Source of the DNA: Acidimicrobiia bacterium
Lineage (GTDB): Bacteria > Actinomycetota > Acidimicrobiia > Spongiisociales > Spongiisociaceae
DNA length: 64,000 bases
Direction: 5' to 3'
NCBI GenBank assembly: GCA_041576165.1
Contig: JBFGLM010000007.1
Span: forward strand, 32,001 to 96,000
Below are positions 17,694 through 50,930 of this stretch, piece after piece; within the stretch, counting starts at the first letter, position 1; the number at the start of each line of letters is the position of its first letter. The notes beneath the pieces are model-generated. The model was not told where the DNA came from. It saw nothing but the letters and a program-made list of their open reading frames with translations, and made no database searches. Both the position numbers and the translations under genes were made by a program.

Positions 17694-17842
17694 AACCGGC
17701 ACCGCGTCTCACGCAACCCGGCGCCTGCCCGTTTCATCCATGCCGGCTGCCCGGCGAAACAAACCACCGTCGGGACCGGTTGACCTAGCTGGTAGCGTCG
17801 CCGCCCGGCCGATCGCGCTTCCACACCCAGGAGCTCGCACAT

Positions 17843-19045: not shown

Positions 19046-19933
19046 GTGCGTGAGCCGGCGCACAGGACCGGGATCGCGGCGGCCGCACTCGGGATCGTCT
19101 TGTGGTCGGCAGGCATCATCATGGTGCGGCCGATCCCGATGTCGGGCATTCAGATCGCCTTCTGGCGGGTGTTTCTGGGGGCGGTCGTCTATTGGACGCT
19201 GCTCCGAGTGTCGGGTCGGAAGCTGTCCGGAGACCAGCTTCGGGCCACCGCGCCCGCCGCGATAGCGATCGGACTCGAGATTGCCGTCTTTTTCGTGGCC
19301 TTGAAGATGACAACGGTCGCCAACACTGTGGTCATCGGCGCCCTCCAGCCCATCGTGTTGCTGGCCGTCGCATCGCGCAGGTTTGGCGAACACGTCACCG
19401 GATGGGTGGTCCGGGTGGCAGCGGGAGCGCTCTTCGGGGTGGCGCTGGTGGCGTTCGGTTCTTCGTCGCAGCCGACCTGGAGCCCCACCGGTGACAGCCT
19501 TGCCCTGGTGGCGATGCTGTTGTTCGCCGCATACTTCGCGTTCGCCAAGGCGGCGCGCGCTCGGGTACCGGCGTTCGAGTTCCAGACCGCCGTCTGGATC
19601 GTGGGATCGGTCGTGCTGTTGCCGCTGGCGCTCATCGACGCCGGCGGGCTCCAACTCCCCAGTCCGGCCAATCTGGTCTGGCTGCTGGCGCTGCTGGCGG
19701 TTCCGGGAACCGGGCATCTCCTCGTCAACTGGGCGCACGCCAAGGTGCCGCTCGTCGTGGTCTCCATGCTGACACTGGCCAATCCGGTGCTGGCGACGGC
19801 CGGGGCAGCCGTCTTTCTGGGCGAAGGCGTGGACGGATGGCAAGTGGCGGGTTTCATGTTGGTGCTGGCCGCGTTGGTCGTCACGATCCGGCGCGAGGCC
19901 GAGCTGCGGACACCGGCCGTAGTTCCAACGTGA
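19046..19933 (+). CDS. EamA/DMT family transporter
   Basis: ~10 TM segments, TTVANTVVIGALQP and GTGHLLVNWAH; start approximate. Confidence 0.85.
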   Translation: MREPAHRTGIAAAALGIVLWSAGIIMVRPIPMSGIQIAFWRVFLGAVVYWTLLRVSGRKLSGDQLRATAPAAIAIGLEIAVFFVALKMTTVANTVVIGALQPIVLLAVASRRFGEHVTGWVVRVAAGALFGVALVAFGSSSQPTWSPTGDSLALVAMLLFAAYFAFAKAARARVPAFEFQTAVWIVGSVVLLPLALIDAGGLQLPSPANLVWLLALLAVPGTGHLLVNWAHAKVPLVVVSMLTLANPVLATAGAAVFLGEGVDGWQVAGFMLVLAALVVTIRREAELRTPAVVPT

Positions 19934-19992: not shown

Positions 19993-21003
19993 GTGGGAAC
20001 CGCCGCCGCCATTCTGGGCGCCTCCGGCTATGCCGGAGGTGAACTTGTTCGACTCTTAGACGACCACCCAGCGTTCGACATCACCTTCCTGGGCGCACAC
20101 AGTTCGGCCGGGTCGGCCCTCGGCCAGGTGCACCCGCACCTGCGGGGCGGTCACCGGCGCCTCCAACCTCTCGGCGAGGTTGGAGAGGTCGACGTCGCGT
20201 TTCTGGCTCTTCCGCACGGAGCGTCGTGGGAGGTGGGCGAGCGATTGGCGTCCGATGGTGTCAGGGTCGTGGACCTCGGTAGCGACTACCGGATGGATAC
20301 GGCGGCCCGCTACGAGGCTGCGTATGGTGCCGCCCATCCGCGTCCGGACCGGCTCGGCGACTGGGTGTACGGGCTGCCGGAGCTGGCCGGCATCGATGTA
20401 TCCGGGGCGCAACTCGTGGCATCTCCGGGTTGCTACCCGACTTCGGCGCTGCTGGGGCTGGCCCCGTTGCTGGCTGCCGGAGCGATAGAGCCCGCGGGCA
20501 TCGTGGTCGACTCGATGTCCGGAGTCACCGGCGCGGGCCGGAGCCTCAAGGAGAATCTGTTGTTCGGTGCCGTGGACGAAAACGTCGCCGCCTACGCGGT
20601 CACCACCCATCGCCATCGGCCCGAGATCGAGATGGGGCTTCTGATCGCCTCAGGGATCGACGCCCGGGTCCAGTTCACCCCTCATCTCGTCCCGATGCAG
20701 CGGGGCATTCTCTCGACGTGTTCCGCCCCGGCGGCGGGCGATCCGGTCGATGTCCTCCGGCTGGCGTACCAGGACAGTCCGTTTGTCGACGTGGTCGACG
20801 CCCCACCCCAGACCCGATGGGTGGTCGGATCCAACCGGGCGCTGATCCACGCCCGTGTCGATGATTCGACCGGCCGGGTTGTGGTGCTGGTAGCGATCGA
20901 CAATCTGTTGAAGGGCGCAGCCGGCCAGGCCGTGCAGGCGGCCAATCTGATGTATGGAATCCCGGAAGAGACGGGTCTCCCGATGACCGGTTGGTTGCCG
21001 TGA
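19993..21003 (+). CDS. argC: N-acetyl-gamma-glutamyl-phosphate reductase
   Basis: GASGYAG, FLALPHG, PGCYPT, SGVTGAGR, DNLLKGAAGQAVQ. Confidence 0.97.
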   Translation: MGTAAAILGASGYAGGELVRLLDDHPAFDITFLGAHSSAGSALGQVHPHLRGGHRRLQPLGEVGEVDVAFLALPHGASWEVGERLASDGVRVVDLGSDYRMDTAARYEAAYGAAHPRPDRLGDWVYGLPELAGIDVSGAQLVASPGCYPTSALLGLAPLLAAGAIEPAGIVVDSMSGVTGAGRSLKENLLFGAVDENVAAYAVTTHRHRPEIEMGLLIASGIDARVQFTPHLVPMQRGILSTCSAPAAGDPVDVLRLAYQDSPFVDVVDAPPQTRWVVGSNRALIHARVDDSTGRVVVLVAIDNLLKGAAGQAVQAANLMYGIPEETGLPMTGWLP

Positions 21004-22160
21004 GCGTCACCGCCGCTCGGGGCTTCCGTGCGACCGGCGTGCACGCGGGCGTGAAACCCGATGGGCGGCTCGACACTGCGCTGGTTACTGCCGATCGTCC
21101 GGTTGCGGCCGCCGCGGTGTTCACGACGTCGCTCACGGCGGCGCCGGTCGTAACGCTGGCTCGCAAGCACCTTGTCAACTCTCTGCTGCAGGCGCTGGTG
21201 ATCAACTCGGGCTGCGCCAACGCAGGTACGGGCGAGGCCGGGCTCGTGTGGGCCGAGCAGATCGCCGGTGCTGCCGCCCGGGCGCTGGGATGCCATACCG
21301 AAGACGTTTTGGTGGCATCGACGGGTCCGATCGGCACGGATCTGCCCGTTGAAGAGATTGTCGCCTCACTGCCGGCGGCGGTGTCCCGCCTCGAGGCAAC
21401 GGCGGACGCGGCCACCCTCGCAGCTCGCAGCATCATGACAACGGACTCGGTCCCGAAAGAAGCGACCGTGGCCGGTGACGGTTACGTGATCGGCGGCATG
21501 TCGAAAGGGGCCGGCATGATCCGGCCGGACATGGCCACCATGCTCGCCTACGTGACGACCGATGCCGTCGTGAACCCGGCGACGTTGCAGGCGGCCCTTT
21601 CTGACGCAGTGGATGTCACCTTCAACTGTCTCAACATCGACGGCTGTCAGTCGACCAACGACATGGTTGTGCTGCTGGCATCGGGGGATTCGGGGACAGA
21701 GCCAGATCCGGCGGCGTTCGCGTCACATCTCACCAGGCTGTGCCGCGATCTGACCTGGCAGATGGCGAAGGATGCCGAGGGGGCAAGTCGGGTCGTGACC
21801 CTCCACATCTCCGGTGCCGACGACCACGCGACTGCCCGCGTGGTGGGTAAAGCGGTGGCGGATTCGGCGCTCGTGCGTTCGTCCTTCTACGGAGGGGACC
21901 CGAACTGGGGACGGATCCTCCAGGCGCTCGGAGTCACAGGGGTGCCTCTCCACCAGGAGGACATTGAAATCGCCTACGAAGGGACGACGGTCACCCAGGG
22001 GGGCGTCGGGATTCCCCACGATGAGGCGGATCTCATGGCACGGCTCGAACAGGGCGACTTTGAGGTCTCGATCGTGGTGGGTATGGGTCACGGCCGGGCC
22101 ACGGTCGTCACCACGGACCTGACACCCGAATATGTCGTCTTCAACGGTGAACGAAGCTGA
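21000..22160 (+). CDS. argJ: Ornithine acetyltransferase
   Basis: NSGCANAGTG, IMTTD, KGAGMIRPDMATML, DGCQSTND, KDAEGA; GTGA overlap with argC. Confidence 0.97.
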   Translation: MSVTAARGFRATGVHAGVKPDGRLDTALVTADRPVAAAAVFTTSLTAAPVVTLARKHLVNSLLQALVINSGCANAGTGEAGLVWAEQIAGAAARALGCHTEDVLVASTGPIGTDLPVEEIVASLPAAVSRLEATADAATLAARSIMTTDSVPKEATVAGDGYVIGGMSKGAGMIRPDMATMLAYVTTDAVVNPATLQAALSDAVDVTFNCLNIDGCQSTNDMVVLLASGDSGTEPDPAAFASHLTRLCRDLTWQMAKDAEGASRVVTLHISGADDHATARVVGKAVADSALVRSSFYGGDPNWGRILQALGVTGVPLHQEDIEIAYEGTTVTQGGVGIPHDEADLMARLEQGDFEVSIVVGMGHGRATVVTTDLTPEYVVFNGERS

Positions 22161-23089
22161 TGGCCACCGGACATACGGCGCCGAGCCCTGGCAAGTCGCG
22201 GATCGCAACGACGATGGGCAAGGCGCGGATCCTCACCGAGGCCATGCCCTACATCAAGCTCTTCAGAGATCAGATCGTCGTCATCAAGTACGGCGGCTCG
22301 GCGATGGTGGACGAGGCGCTGCGGGAGACCTTTGCCGGCGACGTGGCCTTGCTGTCGATCGTGGGCATCAAACCGGTGGTGGTGCACGGCGGGGGGCCTC
22401 ACATCTCCCGCGCAATGGGCCAGCAGGGTGTCGAACCGCAGTGGGTCGACGGTCTTCGCGTGACTGACGCAGAGACCATTCGCGTCGTTCAGAGCACTCT
22501 GGCCGGGGAGATCAACCCGGACATCGTCCGGCTGTTGCAGGGGGCTGGAGCACGGGCGGTCGGCGTGACCGGCATCGACGGCGGTCTGATCACGGCCCGC
22601 CAGCGTGACCCGAAGCTGGGTTTCGTCGGGGACGTCGCCTCGGTGGATCCGAGTCTGATTCGAGCGATGATCGACCAGGGGCTGGTGCCCGTGATAGCGC
22701 CGCTGGCCCGAGGCGAAGACGGGAATGCCTACAACCTGAATGCCGACACCGCGGCCGGGGCGATCGCAGCCGCGTTGGGGGCCAAGAAACTGGTGTACCT
22801 CACCGATGTCGAGGGTCTCTACCGGGATCTCGGCGATGAAGACAGCCTCATCCAGCGCTTGACGCTGGAGGGCCTCAAGGAGCTGGTGGCATCCGGATCG
22901 GTGTCGGCCGGAATGCTGCCCAAGCTGCAGTCAGTGTCGGCGGCCCTCGACGCGGGAGTGGGCCACGCCCATATTCTCGACGGCCGTATCCAGCATGCGT
23001 TGCTGTTGGAGATCTTCACCCCGGAGGGGATCGGCACCATGATCGAACCGGAAACCGAGTTCATGCGCACCATGAGATTGGACGGCTGA
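22160..23089 (+). CDS. argB: Acetylglutamate kinase
   Basis: VIKYGGSAM, VHGGGP, GLRVTD, NLNAD, GMLPK. Confidence 0.97.
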   Translation: MATGHTAPSPGKSRIATTMGKARILTEAMPYIKLFRDQIVVIKYGGSAMVDEALRETFAGDVALLSIVGIKPVVVHGGGPHISRAMGQQGVEPQWVDGLRVTDAETIRVVQSTLAGEINPDIVRLLQGAGARAVGVTGIDGGLITARQRDPKLGFVGDVASVDPSLIRAMIDQGLVPVIAPLARGEDGNAYNLNADTAAGAIAAALGAKKLVYLTDVEGLYRDLGDEDSLIQRLTLEGLKELVASGSVSAGMLPKLQSVSAALDAGVGHAHILDGRIQHALLLEIFTPEGIGTMIEPETEFMRTMRLDG

Positions 23090-23090
23090 C

Positions 23091-24287
23091 ATGGAAGAGA
23101 ACATCGAAAAGGGCCACCCGAATCCGACCGTGGCCGGTGAGGCCGAGTGGGTCATGCAGACCTACAAACGCGTGCCGGTCGTGTTCGTGCGCGGCGACGG
23201 CACGACGCTGTTCGACGACCAGGGCAAGCAGTACCTCGATTTTCTCGGGGGTCTTGCGGTGGTTGGTGTCGGTCATGCCAACACACGGGTCGCAGCCGCA
23301 GTCACCAAACAGATGACCGAACTGGTCCACGTGTCCAACCTCTACTACACCCGTCCCCAGGTCGAGCTGGCGCAGCGCCTGACTCACCTGGCAGGTCTCG
23401 ATCGGGTGTTCTTCGCCAACTGCGGTGCGACGGCGAACGAAACCGCGATCAAGTTGGCCCGGCGCTGGGGGCAGAGGCAGGGCGGCGAGCAGGCATACGA
23501 GATCATCTCGCTCGTTGACTCATTCCACGGGCGGACGCTGGCGGCGCTGGCCGCCACCGGCCAGCCGGCCAAGCAAGCCACCTTCGAGCCACTTCCGCCC
23601 GGGTTCCGGCAGGTGCCGGGCAATGACATTGATGCGCTGGACGCAGCGGTCGGCGATCGGACCGCAGCGGTGATGCTCGAAACCGTCCAGGGGGAGGGTG
23701 GGGTGGTGCCGATGGCAAGCGACTACCTCCACGCCGTACGTGCGCTGTGTGATGAGCGCAATGTGCTGCTCATCTTCGACGACGTGCAGGCCGGCATCGG
23801 CCGCACCGGCACGTGGTTCTCGTGGCAGGCCTTCGGGGTGCAGCCCGACATCGCCACCCTGGCCAAGGCCCTGGCCAACGGGCTGCCGATCGGGGCGTGC
23901 CTGGCCACCCAACGGGCAGCCTCCGCATTCGAATACGGCGACCACGCCACGACCTTCGGCGGCGGTCCCGTCGTGTGTGCAGCAGCGCTGGCCGTGCTCG
24001 ATGAAATCGAGGACCGCGATCTACTCACCAACGTCAAGGACCGGTCCGACCAACTCCACGACGGCTTGCTTGACCTTGCGGGAGTGACCGGCGTCCGCGG
24101 CCGCGGCCTGCTGCTGGCCGCGGTTCTCGACGAGCCCCGGTCGGCAGAAGTGACCCAGGCCGCCCTGGCTGAGGGCCTCGTTGTGAACAACGTCCGCGCG
24201 GACGCAGTGCGGTTCGCCCCGCCTCTGACCGTGACCAGCCAAGAAGTTGACGAGGCCCTCGCCCGGTTCGCCCGCGCCCTCGGCTGA
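23091..24287 (+). CDS. argD: Acetylornithine aminotransferase
   Basis: HVSNLY, SFHGRT, QGEGG, TLAKALANG, HATTFGG; operon context. Confidence 0.95.
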   Translation: MEENIEKGHPNPTVAGEAEWVMQTYKRVPVVFVRGDGTTLFDDQGKQYLDFLGGLAVVGVGHANTRVAAAVTKQMTELVHVSNLYYTRPQVELAQRLTHLAGLDRVFFANCGATANETAIKLARRWGQRQGGEQAYEIISLVDSFHGRTLAALAATGQPAKQATFEPLPPGFRQVPGNDIDALDAAVGDRTAAVMLETVQGEGGVVPMASDYLHAVRALCDERNVLLIFDDVQAGIGRTGTWFSWQAFGVQPDIATLAKALANGLPIGACLATQRAASAFEYGDHATTFGGGPVVCAAALAVLDEIEDRDLLTNVKDRSDQLHDGLLDLAGVTGVRGRGLLLAAVLDEPRSAEVTQAALAEGLVVNNVRADAVRFAPPLTVTSQEVDEALARFARALG

Positions 24288-24526
24288 CCGATTGCGTACC
24301 AGGCCGCCAGTCGCCGGCTCAGCACTGCGGCTCTGCTCCAAGACATCGCCGCTGGCGACAGGGGCTTGGAGCGAAATCATGGTCAATCACGCCTGCGAGA
24401 TAAGACCAAGCCGAGCCGGCCTGCCGGGGGCCGTCGGGCGGGCGGTCGCCAGCGACTAGTCCTTTCGTGTCCGTGGGGAATGGTCATTGAATTCTGGGTC
24501 AGTGAGAACCGATCACACATATAGAA

Positions 24527-24689
24527 GCGGGCGTTCGTCACTGGAGCCGCGTGTCGCCCGACCCGCCGATCAGATTGAGACCGTGAACGGCACACCGGAC
24601 CCCTGTTCGGTGGTTGCGTTCCGCAGGCGGTCCCGGTCTGTGACCAGTCAAGGGCGCGCAGGCTCCGGACTGCAGTGCATGAAGCTCGT
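24527..24689 (+). ncRNA. Candidate 6S-like rod-shaped RNA
   Basis: Nested helices read by eye: CACCGGAC/GTTCGGTG, GAACG/CGTTC, CAGATTGAGACCG/CGGTCCCGGTCTG, central bubble, CGCCC/GGGCG, CTGGAGCC/GGCTCCGG, TTCGT/ATGAA, GCGGGC/GCTCGT; lies in a 500-bp intergenic gap. Confidence 0.5.
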
Positions 24690-24790
24690 CGCCAGTCGAT
24701 GGCCGAGCTGAGGCCTCACTGCGGTCCGGGCCTCGTGGACCCGCTCCGGGTGTCTCACGTTCGAGCGACCCGCTACGTTCAATCATCGAC

Positions 24791-25252
24791 ATGGCATCGT
24801 TGCCTCCGTTTCAGAACTTGTTAGACCGCCACGCCCTCGACGTTCATCGATTCCTGCGGGGCCTGGTGGGACGTGACGCAGCCGAGGATTGCCTGCAGGA
24901 CGCCCTGCTGTCTGCGCTGCGGGCGTACCCGAACCTACGCCACGCCGACAATCTCAGATCGTGGCTGTTCACGATCGCGCACCGAAAGGGCATCGATCAC
25001 CTGCGGAAGTCGGCTCGGGAAACTCTGACGGCCATGGTGCCGGAGACCGCAGTGAACGACGCCGCGCCTGCCGACCCGGTCTTGTGGCGTCGGGTCGGCG
25101 AACTCCCCGACAAACAGCGAGCCGCGGTAATGCTGCGCTTCGTGGGCGACCTACCGTACGCGGCCATTGCCGACGTGATCGGATGCTCGGAGCCGGCCGC
25201 CCGGCAGAGCGTCCGGGTCGGGCTGGCAACGCTTCGAAAGGATTTGACGTGA
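24791..25252 (+). CDS. ECF RNA polymerase sigma factor (minimal, 153 aa)
   Basis: AEDCLQDA, LRSWLFTIAHRK (region 2); LPDKQRAAVMLRF...YAAIADVIG (region 4). Confidence 0.9.
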   Translation: MASLPPFQNLLDRHALDVHRFLRGLVGRDAAEDCLQDALLSALRAYPNLRHADNLRSWLFTIAHRKGIDHLRKSARETLTAMVPETAVNDAAPADPVLWRRVGELPDKQRAAVMLRFVGDLPYAAIADVIGCSEPAARQSVRVGLATLRKDLT

Positions 25253-25854
25253 TGCAATTCGAGTTCACCGACGTCGACCGTCACACCCACGATCTCCAGA
25301 TGGAGCGGTTCGCCGCCGCGGCGTTCGGTGAGGATGGACCGGCCAAGCTGGCCTACGCCACGTTCGGGTCGCCGATCGGGACGCTGCTGGCGGCCGTTAC
25401 CCATGGCGGACTGGTGCGGATCGGCTTCGAGAGCGAGGGGACCGATGACGTTCTCGACAGCCTTGCCCGCAAGATCTCTCCGGCGATCGTTGAGCTGCCG
25501 GCCGCGCTCGCCGGGGTGAAAGAACAGCTCGATCTCTACTTCGCAGGATCGCTCCGCACCTTCGATCTACTGGTCGACCGCCGGTTGTTCACGCCTTTCC
25601 AGGAGAAGGTGCTCGCCGCAACATCCTCCATCCCGTGTGGTGAAGTCCTCAGCTACGGGCAGGTGGCCGCCCTGGTCGGGAAGCCCGGTGCCGCGCAGGC
25701 CACCGGCCAGGCGCTCGGCGCCAATCCGATTCCGGTGGTCATTCCCTGTCACCGTGTGGTGGCCGCTGATGGTTCGCTTCATGGATACGGCGGCGGGCTG
25801 GACCGCAAACGATTTCTACTGGAACTCGAACAGGGGGCCGCCCGGCTGTTCTGA
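25249..25854 (+). CDS. ogt: Methylated-DNA-protein-cysteine methyltransferase
   Basis: NPIPVVIPCHRV active site, GYGGGLDRKRFLLELE; GTGA overlap with the sigma gene. Confidence 0.92.
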   Translation: MMQFEFTDVDRHTHDLQMERFAAAAFGEDGPAKLAYATFGSPIGTLLAAVTHGGLVRIGFESEGTDDVLDSLARKISPAIVELPAALAGVKEQLDLYFAGSLRTFDLLVDRRLFTPFQEKVLAATSSIPCGEVLSYGQVAALVGKPGAAQATGQALGANPIPVVIPCHRVVAADGSLHGYGGGLDRKRFLLELEQGAARLF

Positions 25855-25988
25855 TGACTCCGCCGAGTTTGCGCCTGACCCGCTTGGGTAGGTCGGCCCT
25901 AGATATAGGGTCTTTCCGCTGCGGTTCGAGCTCAGAACCCACGTTACCTTTGGCCCATATGTTGCGGTCGGTGCGACGAAAGGTCGGC

Positions 25989-26456
25989 ATGATGACAACT
26001 GACGATGCTGGTCGGGCATTCGACTTCCTCCAGATCGCCACTGAGGACAGCGGAGCTGAGAACGTCCTCGATGAGTTTGTCGACCTTTTCAACGCCCGCG
26101 ATCTCGATGCGCTGGCATCGCTGGTCTCGGAGGATCTCGACGCCGAGTTCCTGAAGGTGGCGGGTCGGGAGGGTGCCATGCAGGCGCTCGAGAATCTCTT
26201 CATCCGCCAGCCTTTCACCGTCGCCACCCGGGGTGAGCTTGGGCTCGAACCGATTGCCGCCCTCTGGCAACCCACCGGTGAAGACGGGAGCGGCTACGTC
26301 GTGGTGGGGTATCTCGTCTTCGAGTGCTCCGACGAGGACGAACCGCTCATCACCCGGGTTGAGTATTTCGAGGAATTGGAGGACGTGCTGCTGGAAGAGC
26401 CGGACGGCGTGATCGAGGGTCTCGACTGGGACCTCGCCGACCTGGACCGATCGTGA
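25989..26456 (+). CDS. Acidic hypothetical protein (possible SnoaL/NTF2-like)
   Basis: FVDLFNARDLDALASLVSED pattern; strong GC3 bias. Confidence 0.65.
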   Translation: MMTTDDAGRAFDFLQIATEDSGAENVLDEFVDLFNARDLDALASLVSEDLDAEFLKVAGREGAMQALENLFIRQPFTVATRGELGLEPIAALWQPTGEDGSGYVVVGYLVFECSDEDEPLITRVEYFEELEDVLLEEPDGVIEGLDWDLADLDRS

Positions 26457-26478: not shown

Positions 26479-26949
26479 TCAGACCCCGCGGCCGAGCTTG
26501 ACCAACACCGCGTCGGTGGTCAGCTCGACGCCGACATAGATTCGGTCGGGCGGTTCGGTCAGCCAGGTGGTCACGAGGTCGTCACTGCTCGATTCGTACG
26601 AGACCGGCTGATCGAGCGATTCGGCGTACGCCGCATAGAACCTGATGATCTCGTCGTATCGATCGACCGGATACCGGAGATCCACGAGACGGATGACGCC
26701 GTCATCGGTGCGGCGTTCCATCGAGGCGATCCTGGTCGCTCCGTTGAGAACGGGAACCTCCAGCCCGGGCGGGAGCTCATCAGACACCCTGACGGTGCCG
26801 GTGTCATCTGTCACCGTGTAACCGCCGCCCTCGATGTCGACATGGCCGCCCAGCTCGTCCCCGAGTGCATCTTCCGCGAGACGCTCGGCGGCCGCGCTGC
26901 AACCTGTGCAAACGAGTATCAGCGTCAAGAGCAGAGCGGCCTTCGACAC
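26479..26949 (-). CDS. Hypothetical lipoprotein
   Basis: Signal peptide ending in CTGC; TAGCAT -10 element 6 nt before the GTG. Confidence 0.7.
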   Translation of the reverse strand: MSKAALLLTLILVCTGCSAAAERLAEDALGDELGGHVDIEGGGYTVTDDTGTVRVSDELPPGLEVPVLNGATRIASMERRTDDGVIRLVDLRYPVDRYDEIIRFYAAYAESLDQPVSYESSSDDLVTTWLTEPPDRIYVGVELTTDAVLVKLGRGV

Positions 26950-26973
26950 GGGGGTATGCTACGGCACCCATCT

Positions 26974-27007
26974 TGCATGATCATACATATCAATGCATAA
27001 TCTTGCA
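26974..27007 (+). promoter_or_regulatory. Tandem ARG boxes over the argR promoter
   Basis: TGCATGATCATACA (26974-26987) and TGCATAATCTTGCA (26994-27007), 20-bp period; they overlap TTGCAT-N17-CATAAT, 7 nt before the ATG. Confidence 0.88.
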
Positions 27008-27008
27008 G

Positions 27009-27472
27009 ATGGCAGGAACGGCGGCCCGGCACCGTGCGGTGCGTTCGATTTTGGCTCGCCATGTCGTCGCGAGTCAGGAGGATCTCGTTGGTCACCTCGC
27101 GGCGGATGGTATCGAGGTGACTCAGGCGACCATATCCCGCGACCTGCAGACGCTCGGTGCCATCAAAGCCCGCGACGCCGACGGGCACCTGCGTTACATG
27201 CTCGCCGACGGGTTTCGTCCCGGCGGTGAGGCGGAAGAACTGTTGGCCCGGTCGCTGGCGGAATTCGCGCTGTCAATCAGCTCGAGCGGCAATCTCGTAG
27301 TGGTGAAGACGCCCCCCGGCGCAGCGCACGTCGTGGCGAGCGGTGTAGACGGAGCGGCGCTGACCGGCGTAATGGGCACGGTGGCCGGAGACGACACGCT
27401 GATGATCGTGACCGATGAGGCGATTGGGGGTCGCGCGGTGGCAAAGGAACTCGAACGAATTGGAGCAGGCTG

Positions 27473-27473
<1 letters not shown>
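27009..27473 (+). CDS. argR: Arginine repressor
   Basis: [30 protein letters not shown]. Confidence 0.97.
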
Positions 27474-28675
<1,202 letters not shown>

Positions 28676-50483: not shown

Positions 50484-50807
50484 CGCACCTCCGTGCGTAG
50501 TTCACCCGTCCGGTCGGACGCCGTACTAGACCGGACGCGACACGGGAGAATGCCCATAACGTAGCCCGATGCGAGCGGCATGCTGGCGGTCAGGCTCGTG
50601 GTGGATCCTGACCGCTGCTCATGTTTCATGACATCAGGCTCGAGGTGTCGCACGGCGGCAAACACTCATCACGGTCGGATGCTCGGTGGGTACCGACACA
50701 TCGACTCCCTGAGACGGTTGCACTGGCGGGAGTTTCGGCGTGCGTCTGCGCGGCGCATCGTCACCTGGGGAGGGACCCAGCTGCGGCCAGCAGCTGGGCG
50801 GAGAAAG

Positions 50808-50841
50808 ACAATGGGCGGCTGGGAAACCGGTCGCCCATTGT
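50808..50841 (+). terminator. 15-bp hairpin with GAAA loop
   Basis: ACAATGGGCGGCTGG-GAAA-CCGGTCGCCCATTGT; G-U pairs favour the + strand. Confidence 0.6.
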
Positions 50842-50930
50842 TCGTCGTTCAGTAGATGGATGGCAAAAACGATGCCGGTATTAAGAACGGGCCGGTCGTA
50901 GCATGTGGAACTGAGGGGGGCTCATCCGCG

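Follow-up and report, generated by a model that had tools for sequence, protein, structure and literature searches.

A candidate structured RNA element between argD and an ECF sigma factor gene in an Acidimicrobiia genome

The arg locus and its spacer

The DNA analysed here (the window) is a stretch of 64 kb with 66% GC, and it is part of a 5.1-Mb assembly of 161 contigs from an Acidimicrobiia bacterium. The window carries an arg cluster with argC, argJ, argB and argD on one side and argR and argG on the other, and between these two groups there are genes for an ECF sigma factor, an O6-alkylguanine-DNA methyltransferase (ogt) and a SnoaL-like protein (Table 1). In this clade, the slot of the arg cluster that is usually held by argF is occupied by the sigma-ogt pair, and argF-like genes are found on other contigs of the genome. 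The gap of 400 nt between the SnoaL-like gene and argR holds an ORF of 156 aa (26479-26949, - strand) without Pfam family.

The spacer between argD and the sigma gene is the subject of this work. A previous sequence-only reading had described a rod-shaped RNA in it (the rod), located inside the arg cluster and directly 5' of an ECF sigma gene. Both positional statements are right, as the rod is flanked by argC-J-B-D and argR-G and lies 101 nt before the sigma gene. The spacer also contains, at its argD end, a hairpin (H0) that is likely to be argD's own 3' hairpin.

Table 1. Features of the arg locus and of its spacer, with the corresponding spacers of relatives (positions refer to the window unless a locus is named)
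Feature	Position	Strand	Description
argC	19993-21003	+	arg cluster gene order
argJ	20991-22160	+	arg cluster gene order
argB	22160-23089	+	arg cluster gene order
argD (acetylornithine aminotransferase)	23091-24287	+	Pfam Aminotran_3, E 2e-111; co-directional, 5' of the element
argD-sigma spacer		+	503 nt, between argD and the ECF sigma gene
Hairpin H0	24286-24385	+	100 nt; begins at the argD stop codon; MFE -49.5, z -3.41, 1/200 shuffles
Rod	24527-24689	+	163 nt; MFE fold of the isolated segment only
P1	24527-24566	+	weak hairpin closed by GCGGG/CCCGC, 5 invariant closing pairs; conserved TTCGTCAC inside
P2	24571-24640	+	70-nt hairpin, inner half of the rod; 11 conserved base pairs; base conserved, apex diverged
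Junction	24641-24651	+	single-stranded TGACCAGTCAA, conserved; one strand of the bubble of the sequence-only reading
P3	24652-24742	+	91-nt hairpin; 5' arm 24652-24677 (= 3' arm of the rod), variable loop 24678-24716, 3' arm 24717-24742
Predicted ECF-type promoter of the sigma gene	24753-24759 (-35), 24776-24779 (-10)	+	-35 TCTCACG, 16-nt spacer, -10 CGTT; 11 nt before ATG
ECF sigma factor	24791-25252	+	153 aa; Pfam Sigma70_r2 and Sigma70_r4_2
O6-alkylguanine-DNA methyltransferase (Ogt-like)	25249-25854	+	Pfam DNA_binding_1 and Methyltransf_1N; PCHR active site (IPCHRVV in the translation)
SnoaL-like protein	25854-26456	+	Pfam SnoaL_2, E 1.1e-4, under the curated cut-off; final gene before the argR side
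argR	26865-27473	+	arg cluster gene order
argG	27473-28675	+	arg cluster gene order
Spacer of L063			about 95 nt; element absent
Spacer of L014			about 290 nt; unrelated to the element
Spacer of L016 (near-twin L053)	L016 2127-2966	-	PIN-domain gene with a small upstream ORF
Spacer of L022	L022 1872-2629	-	IS4/5-family transposase, two ORFs (DUF4096 and DDE_Tnp_1)

The sigma-ogt cassette and its predicted promoter

The sigma gene and ogt are adjacent in 22 of the 23 genome loci with at least 50% sigma identity, which come from Acidimicrobiia and Limnocylindria, and the 23rd locus ends at a contig edge. The 110 nt before the sigma start were aligned, and reading by eye showed the motif TCTCACG-N16-CGTT at a fixed position in the window as well as in 21 of the 22 related loci, which are of the same two groups. 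This motif has the layout of an ECF-type autoregulated promoter (bipartite, with a spacer of 16 +/- 1 nt, and kept before orthologous sigma genes), and as such it is a predicted promoter. Its layout resembles that of the ECF41 promoter, given as TGTCACA-n16-CGTC in the available text of PMC3426412. The distance to the ATG leaves room for a leader of some 5 nt at most, and a Shine-Dalgarno sequence cannot be recognised, so the sigma-ogt mRNA made from this promoter would be nearly leaderless. Because the promoter lies 3' of the conserved element described below, which ends 10 nt before the -35 box, and the leader is so short, neither the element nor the rod would be the leader of the sigma-ogt mRNA.

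Related to the cassette, a 6-O-methylguanine DNA methyltransferase is the conserved neighbour of the ECF122 group, which is described as lacking a cognate anti-sigma factor and as possibly subject to a non-canonical regulation yet to be characterised (review PMC8999054, available part). The sigma gene of the window would fit ECF122, an assignment made by gene context alone: ogt stands directly behind the sigma gene, and the likeness concerns this neighbouring gene, not the element in the spacer. In the accessible portions of PMC3426412 and PMC8999054, an upstream structured element is mentioned neither for ECF41 nor for ECF122.

Besides the copy at 24753-24779, the strict motif (TCTCACG-N15-17-CGTT) occurs at window position 17707 and at five other sites, with 7 matches in the genome. 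In three of the 7 copies (that of the sigma gene itself, one on contig C85 and that at 17707) an ATG follows after 6-11 nt, and the ORF after the copy at 17707 appears to be out of frame. The copies near an ATG suggest a small regulon of leaderless genes, and no regulon is claimed here. In four sponge-associated Acidimicrobiia loci (L017-L020), a near-perfect AT-rich palindrome, AATGAGAATCATTCTCATT, is found 5' of the promoter, about 60-90 nt before the sigma start; we take it to resemble a Fur/Zur-type operator.

Fold of the rod in isolation and in context

The rod had been described as one long hairpin of about eight nested helices. The isolated segment does give such a hairpin, irregular and with some 7-8 helices, which is lost when the segment is placed in the context of the spacer. 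The isolated fold has an energy of -79.2 kcal/mol on the + strand (z -2.24; 4 of 200 shuffled sequences were equally good), i.e. it stands above chance only to a modest degree, and the + strand is favoured as had been proposed (-79.2 on + versus -74.0 on -). The central bubble of 11 x 11 nt, GACCCGCCGAT opposite TGACCAGTCAA, is obtained if a 3-bp GAC/GUC helix is ignored; otherwise there is an internal loop with CCGCCGAU opposite GUGACC, flanked by GAC/GUC. The fold was also placed against the rest of the window by means of a scan with 3192 segments of 163 nt per strand (step 20), in which the energy was compared with the value expected from GC content. An energy deficit at least as large as that of the rod was shown by 122 of the 3192 segments, grouped in 48 regions, and the rod is unexceptional for a window of 66% GC.

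When the complete spacer of 503 nt, or positions 24520-24750, is folded whole, the inner hairpin of the rod is the only part that survives, and the 3' arm of the rod pairs with 24717-24742, i.e. with DNA beyond the borders of the rod.

Two further well-folding stretches were seen in the window. Positions 19841-19921 (+), just 5' of argC, are among the best-folding segments of 163 nt (GC-corrected energies of some -3 to -3.5 sd) and may serve as an arg operon leader or as a terminator for the preceding gene. Positions 50681-50900 (+), between an amidase gene (-) and a gene for an UppS-like prenyltransferase, form a multi-hairpin stretch that folds very strongly (-112.2 kcal/mol, z -5.86, 0 of 200 shuffles). 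Rfam at E <= 1 gave only chance-level matches in that stretch, and the 91-aa ORF lying over it has no Pfam match.

A conserved element that extends beyond the rod

The closest relatives of the sigma gene belong to uncultured Acidimicrobiia of marine and sponge metagenomes. In one of these metagenome loci, L052, where the sigma factor has 69% protein identity, window positions 24520-24790 have a clear homologue before the same promoter. The upstream gene of L052 is BaxI_1 instead of argD, and there is no BaxI_1 homologue in the genome of the window. As judged from this alignment, the rod is half of a larger conserved element of about 225 nt (about 24520-24745), non-coding and on the + strand, which is predicted to consist of three hairpins (P1, P2 and P3) and a junction between the last two.

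The fold of the rod itself was followed in the same alignment, as the sequence-only reading had recommended for relatives in general, and it is not what has been kept: 13 of the 33 pairs of its outer helices are broken (unpaired) in L052, and P3 replaces the pairing of the rod. The duplex between the outer arms of the rod was reached by 10 of 1000 shuffles in the window and by 152 of 1000 in L052. P3, on the other hand, has an energy of -58.5 kcal/mol in the window (z -4.29) and a z of -4.03 in L052, and its arm-arm duplex was reached by 1 of 1000 shuffles in the window and by none of 1000 in L052. All 24 pairs of P3 are kept, of which 19 are invariant, 4 have one-sided, wobble-compatible changes (to or from G-U or U-A) and 1 is a compensatory change of A-U to G-C. 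The consensus fold was derived from these same two sequences, window and L052, so its 100% pairing holds by construction; its informative parts are the kinds of pair change and the comparison with the rod. In the case of P2 the z values are -3.35 (window) and -2.76 (L052), and 6 of the 7 pairs of the apex are changed on both sides while the hairpin is formed in both sequences. P1 is weak in the window (z -0.23) and better in L052 (z -3.74).

Conservation between the window and L052 is distributed in blocks. Identity is 92% in the 5' base of P2 (12/13) and 85% in the junction plus the 5' arm of P3 (29/34 identical, 24642-24675), whereas it falls to 35% in the apex of P2 (15/43) and to 34% in the loop of P3, which is 19 nt longer in L052 than in the window. 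The 3' arm of P3 (73%) and the promoter (74%) are intermediate. For comparison, third codon positions of the sigma gene are 45% identical and the sequence 5' of the element 36%. Blocks at 85-92% against 34-45% in loops and third codon positions argue for purifying selection on the blocks. With respect to the strand, the consensus has an energy of -69.05 on + versus -51.0 on -, and P3 is more stable on the + strand in both sequences; over its full 231 nt, the window's copy folds about equally well on either strand (-114.7 versus -114.9).

Both strands have open frames across the element, and the translations of these can be aligned (42% identity over 67 aa), as would follow from the shared DNA. 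No Pfam family was matched by the two ORFs of the element. By codon phase, the element (142 ungapped nt) has identities of 56/70/55% and the sigma gene of 79/83/45%, and the GC content of the element differs little between phases (0.74/0.65/0.66). These two features indicate that the element is non-coding and rule out a small protein. A relic of argF was also considered and set aside, as the conserved blocks lack a coding pattern and argF-like genes are present on another contig.

Distribution of the element

The sequence-only reading had left room for a MITE-like repeat with many copies. The rod is instead a single-copy sequence: BLAST in its own genome gave one full match and 22 short ones, the latter all with E >= 0.129, and a covariance model of the element (R1) run on the 5.1 Mb found the element itself as sole match.

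Outside this genome the element is rare. When the spacer was searched with BLAST and nhmmer in 38 genome loci that surround relatives of the sigma gene, the best match was one of 41 nt, on the opposite strand and away from sigma; among 35 metagenome loci, L052 alone gave a match. The element was not found in 40 relatives, nor in 28 genomes of the same family. Of the 400 genomes searched in the order, 40 showed matches, all of them short (no longer than about 50 nt, E 5e-5 to 0.01). A pattern search with <=3 mismatches in 400 genomes of the class found the window's own genome only, and viral contigs gave 0 matches. Model R1 matched only the window and L052 when it was run on 33 related loci together with these two, and on 150 relatives it gave 2 weak matches, both in coding DNA without sigma or ogt.

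A third, partial relative is a contig of the DNA run X7 (record 26), with a DNA identity of about 81% at its argD end. Among the differences listed for it, 24291-24525 is swapped for 173 other letters, H0 thus not being conserved there; 24526-24583 is preserved except for 6 differences in 58 nt; 24584-24660 is swapped for 75 other letters; and from 24661 on the sequence is retained, with numerous indels in 24682-24715 (the loop of P3). In the comparison of four DNA runs from four studies, X5 and X6 gave identical pieces and X10 short, unlike pieces only. Among 17 sequencing runs listed for the stretch, no RNA run was found to contain it.

Five loci have argD directly 5' of the sigma gene with spacers unrelated to that of the window, and the foreign genes found there (Table 1) point to an insertion hotspot between argD and sigma in relatives. 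Good folding just before the promoter (z <= -2) is seen in 3 of 35 sigma loci, several of which are near-identical sequences: the window (-3.69), L052 (-3.47) and L014 (-2.25). The element is thus apparently restricted to two or three lineages and dispensable in relatives.

Taken together, these comparisons describe a conserved, structure-preserving, non-coding element of the + strand, which accompanies the sigma-ogt cassette behind two different upstream genes. It belongs to no described family, and it should be regarded as a modest candidate rather than as a discovery.

A proposed barrier against upstream transcription

The reading that is tentatively preferred here, and that may well be wrong, is that the element is an RNA barrier of tandem long hairpins located 5' of sigma-ogt; we infer both its transcription and its function as a barrier. 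As RNA, the stable hairpins would stop or process transcription that reads in from the gene before them on the same strand, argD in the window and the BaxI-like gene in L052, and translatable, leaderless sigma-ogt mRNA would come from the autoregulated promoter alone. The rod would be an alternative pairing of the 5' arm of P3 with the P1 region, which could form before the 3' arm of P3 is made, and not the conserved fold.

This proposal is consistent with the presence of the element at the same promoter in L052 despite a different upstream gene, with the block-wise selection, the 24 of 24 pairs kept in P3, the + strand preference and the non-coding pattern, and also with the position of the promoter and the near-leaderless start. 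Hairpin terminators and insulators are likewise very stable, GC-rich hairpins of the coding strand that separate an upstream gene from the promoter that follows it. The element differs from them in its far longer stems (24+ bp), its loops of 39-58 nt, its conserved junction and its linkage to the downstream cassette, not to the upstream gene. It also lacks a run of U after P3, where the window has GGACCCGCUCC, and a scan of 24100-24900 (+ strand) found 0 intrinsic terminators. Hairpin terminators without a U tract have been reported in Actinobacteria.

Other observations speak against a barrier. H0, at the argD stop codon, makes a second one seem redundant, and the junction and the stems are conserved in sequence beyond what a mere hairpin needs. 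The same argD-sigma order is found without the element in L063, L014, L016 and L022. The absence of the element in relatives, together with a good fold in only 3 of 35 loci, implies that a barrier is not generally required, and the consensus is built on two full sequences.

Other readings of the element

It is possible, if somewhat doubtful, that the element is a stand-alone small RNA of about 220-230 nt, with its own promoter just 5' of P1 and with P3 as its 3' end, which would act in trans and possibly in the sigma stress response. Conserved stems with a single-stranded junction, which could serve as seed region, and variable loops are in keeping with such an RNA, as are the + strand preference of the consensus and the linkage to the sigma cassette in two upstream contexts. 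Besides, the window and L052 share a conserved AT-rich ATATA block 4-8 nt before P1, in a genome of 66% GC. Nevertheless, the promoter scan found 0 promoters of the sigma-70 type, and ATATAG/ATATAC, compared by eye, does not match TANNNT, the -10 box of Actinobacteria. The scan found no U-tract terminator that would end such a transcript.

A feature of the DNA itself is unlikely. It could be what remains, next to the cassette, of a mobile element or of a recombination site, or a set of protein-binding inverted repeats 5' of the promoter. The spacer is a recurrent insertion site (the PIN-domain gene in L016, the IS4/5-family transposase in L022), the upstream gene of L052 is a different one, and long hairpins with conserved arms and variable centres have a MITE-like look; moreover, the 3' arm of P3 covers about -43 to -68 relative to the expected start, a region bound by activators. 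Such a feature is at odds with the single copy in the genome and with a distance between the arms that changes by 19 nt from the window to L052. Furthermore, it is only on the + strand that the one-sided stem changes can be accommodated by G-U pairing, and the consensus energy favours this strand by 18 kcal/mol, which points to RNA rather than to duplex DNA.

The segment 24652-24677 is common to both the rod and P3, and the two folds could therefore be the mutually exclusive states of a cis-acting RNA switch that would gate upstream read-through into sigma-ogt. When the 3' arm of P3 is blocked, i.e. unavailable for pairing, both the window and L052 fold in a rod-like manner, and in the window the duplex between the P1 region and the 5' arm of P3 beats 990 of 1000 shuffles. 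Such a switch would also give an input to an ECF sigma factor without anti-sigma factor, in a group (ECF122) whose regulation is, in the available text of PMC8999054, yet to be characterised. However, the corresponding duplex of L052 is no better than shuffles (152/1000) and 13 of 33 outer pairs of the rod are broken in the alignment. The full sequence prefers P3 over the rod plus tail by about 8 kcal/mol in the window (-114.7 versus -106.9) and by about 23 kcal/mol in L052 (-122.3 versus -99.7). The ATG of the sigma gene has no visible ribosome-binding site, so that read-through mRNA may stay untranslated, and neither a ligand pocket nor a match to a known riboswitch family was found. A co-transcriptional switch is conceivable, the signs of selection on the rod pairing are weak, and this reading is regarded as improbable.

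Chance hairpins without function in a GC-rich spacer would account for the low z of the rod (only -2.24), for the 48 regions of the window that fold at least as well after GC correction, and for the narrow distribution of an element that is dispensable in relatives. This explanation is very unlikely in view of the blocks with 85-92% identity against 34-45% at neutral-looking sites, the z values of P3 in two lineages (-4.3 and -4.0) and the hairpins kept where the sequence diverged.

Relation to 6S and Ms1 RNAs

The rod had been interpreted as a 6S-like or novel non-coding RNA. The second half of this interpretation is retained, as a candidate with a different fold and with borders at about 24520-24745, and the first half finds no support: there is no Rfam match, the closing helices are not conserved and the searched relatives lack the element. 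GTTCG, GCCGAT and TGACCAGTCAAGGG in the rod had been taken to resemble elements of E. coli 6S RNA. The isolated segment does share with 6S RNA (RF00013) a rod-like shape with an internal loop and a similar size (163 nt versus about 185 nt). According to the accessible text of PMC9130861, 6S RNAs are widespread except in Actinobacteria, and this was counted in favour of the 6S reading.

A covariance search with the Rfam 6S model had been proposed as a check, and RF00013 was unmatched both in the 64-kb window and in the whole genome. At the gathering score, Rfam 15 gave 0 matches in the whole window; at E <= 10, the region 24250-24850 gave on both strands five chance-level matches (miRNA, snoRNA and HIV families), with RF00013 not among them. 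In the whole genome RF00013 gave 0 matches at E <= 1, a result that has little weight either way because in a control the same model gave a positive result in only 5 of 14 well-known genomes; a divergent 6S RNA is thus conceivable, no other one having been found in the genome with this model. The conserved fold consists of three hairpins, instead of a rod closed by outer helices, and the element occurs in two or three lineages rather than in a whole phylum. It was not found in the 28 family, 400 order and 400 class genomes, which makes it a poor fit to a housekeeping regulator of RNA polymerase, and relatives of the same gene order have unrelated spacers. The 6S reading fails in what could be tested of it.

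Ms1 and the element have in common that the latter is a candidate structured intergenic RNA of an actinobacterial genome. They differ in setting: in the available part of PMC9130861, Ms1 is located in a spacer of >300 nt beside genes for a HAD-hydrolase and an oxidoreductase, a synteny that the flanking genes argD and ECF sigma do not share. The word 'Acidimicrobi' is absent from the main text of that article on Ms1. That the rod is a 6S-like or Ms1-like RNA binding RNA polymerase is, on this evidence, hardly credible.

Implications for the biology of Acidimicrobiia

The first consequence is a correction of the record, since the locus gives no evidence of 6S RNA in this group. The reach of the element itself is small, as it concerns two or three lineages and is dispensable in relatives. 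If real, it would be a new, lineage-restricted structured RNA element of uncultured marine Acidimicrobiia, tied to a cassette of ECF sigma factor and DNA-alkylation repair. It would also offer a handle on how sigma factors without anti-sigma factor are silenced or switched on, in a group, ECF122, whose regulation is uncharacterised according to the accessible portion of PMC8999054. It is improbable, though conceivable, that the element is an RNA-level regulator of the ECF122-like sigma factor that lacks an anti-sigma factor, either as a switch between rod and P3 or as a small RNA in the sigma circuit; if this were true, RNA would supply the missing input of the ECF122-like group in one lineage of Acidimicrobiia.
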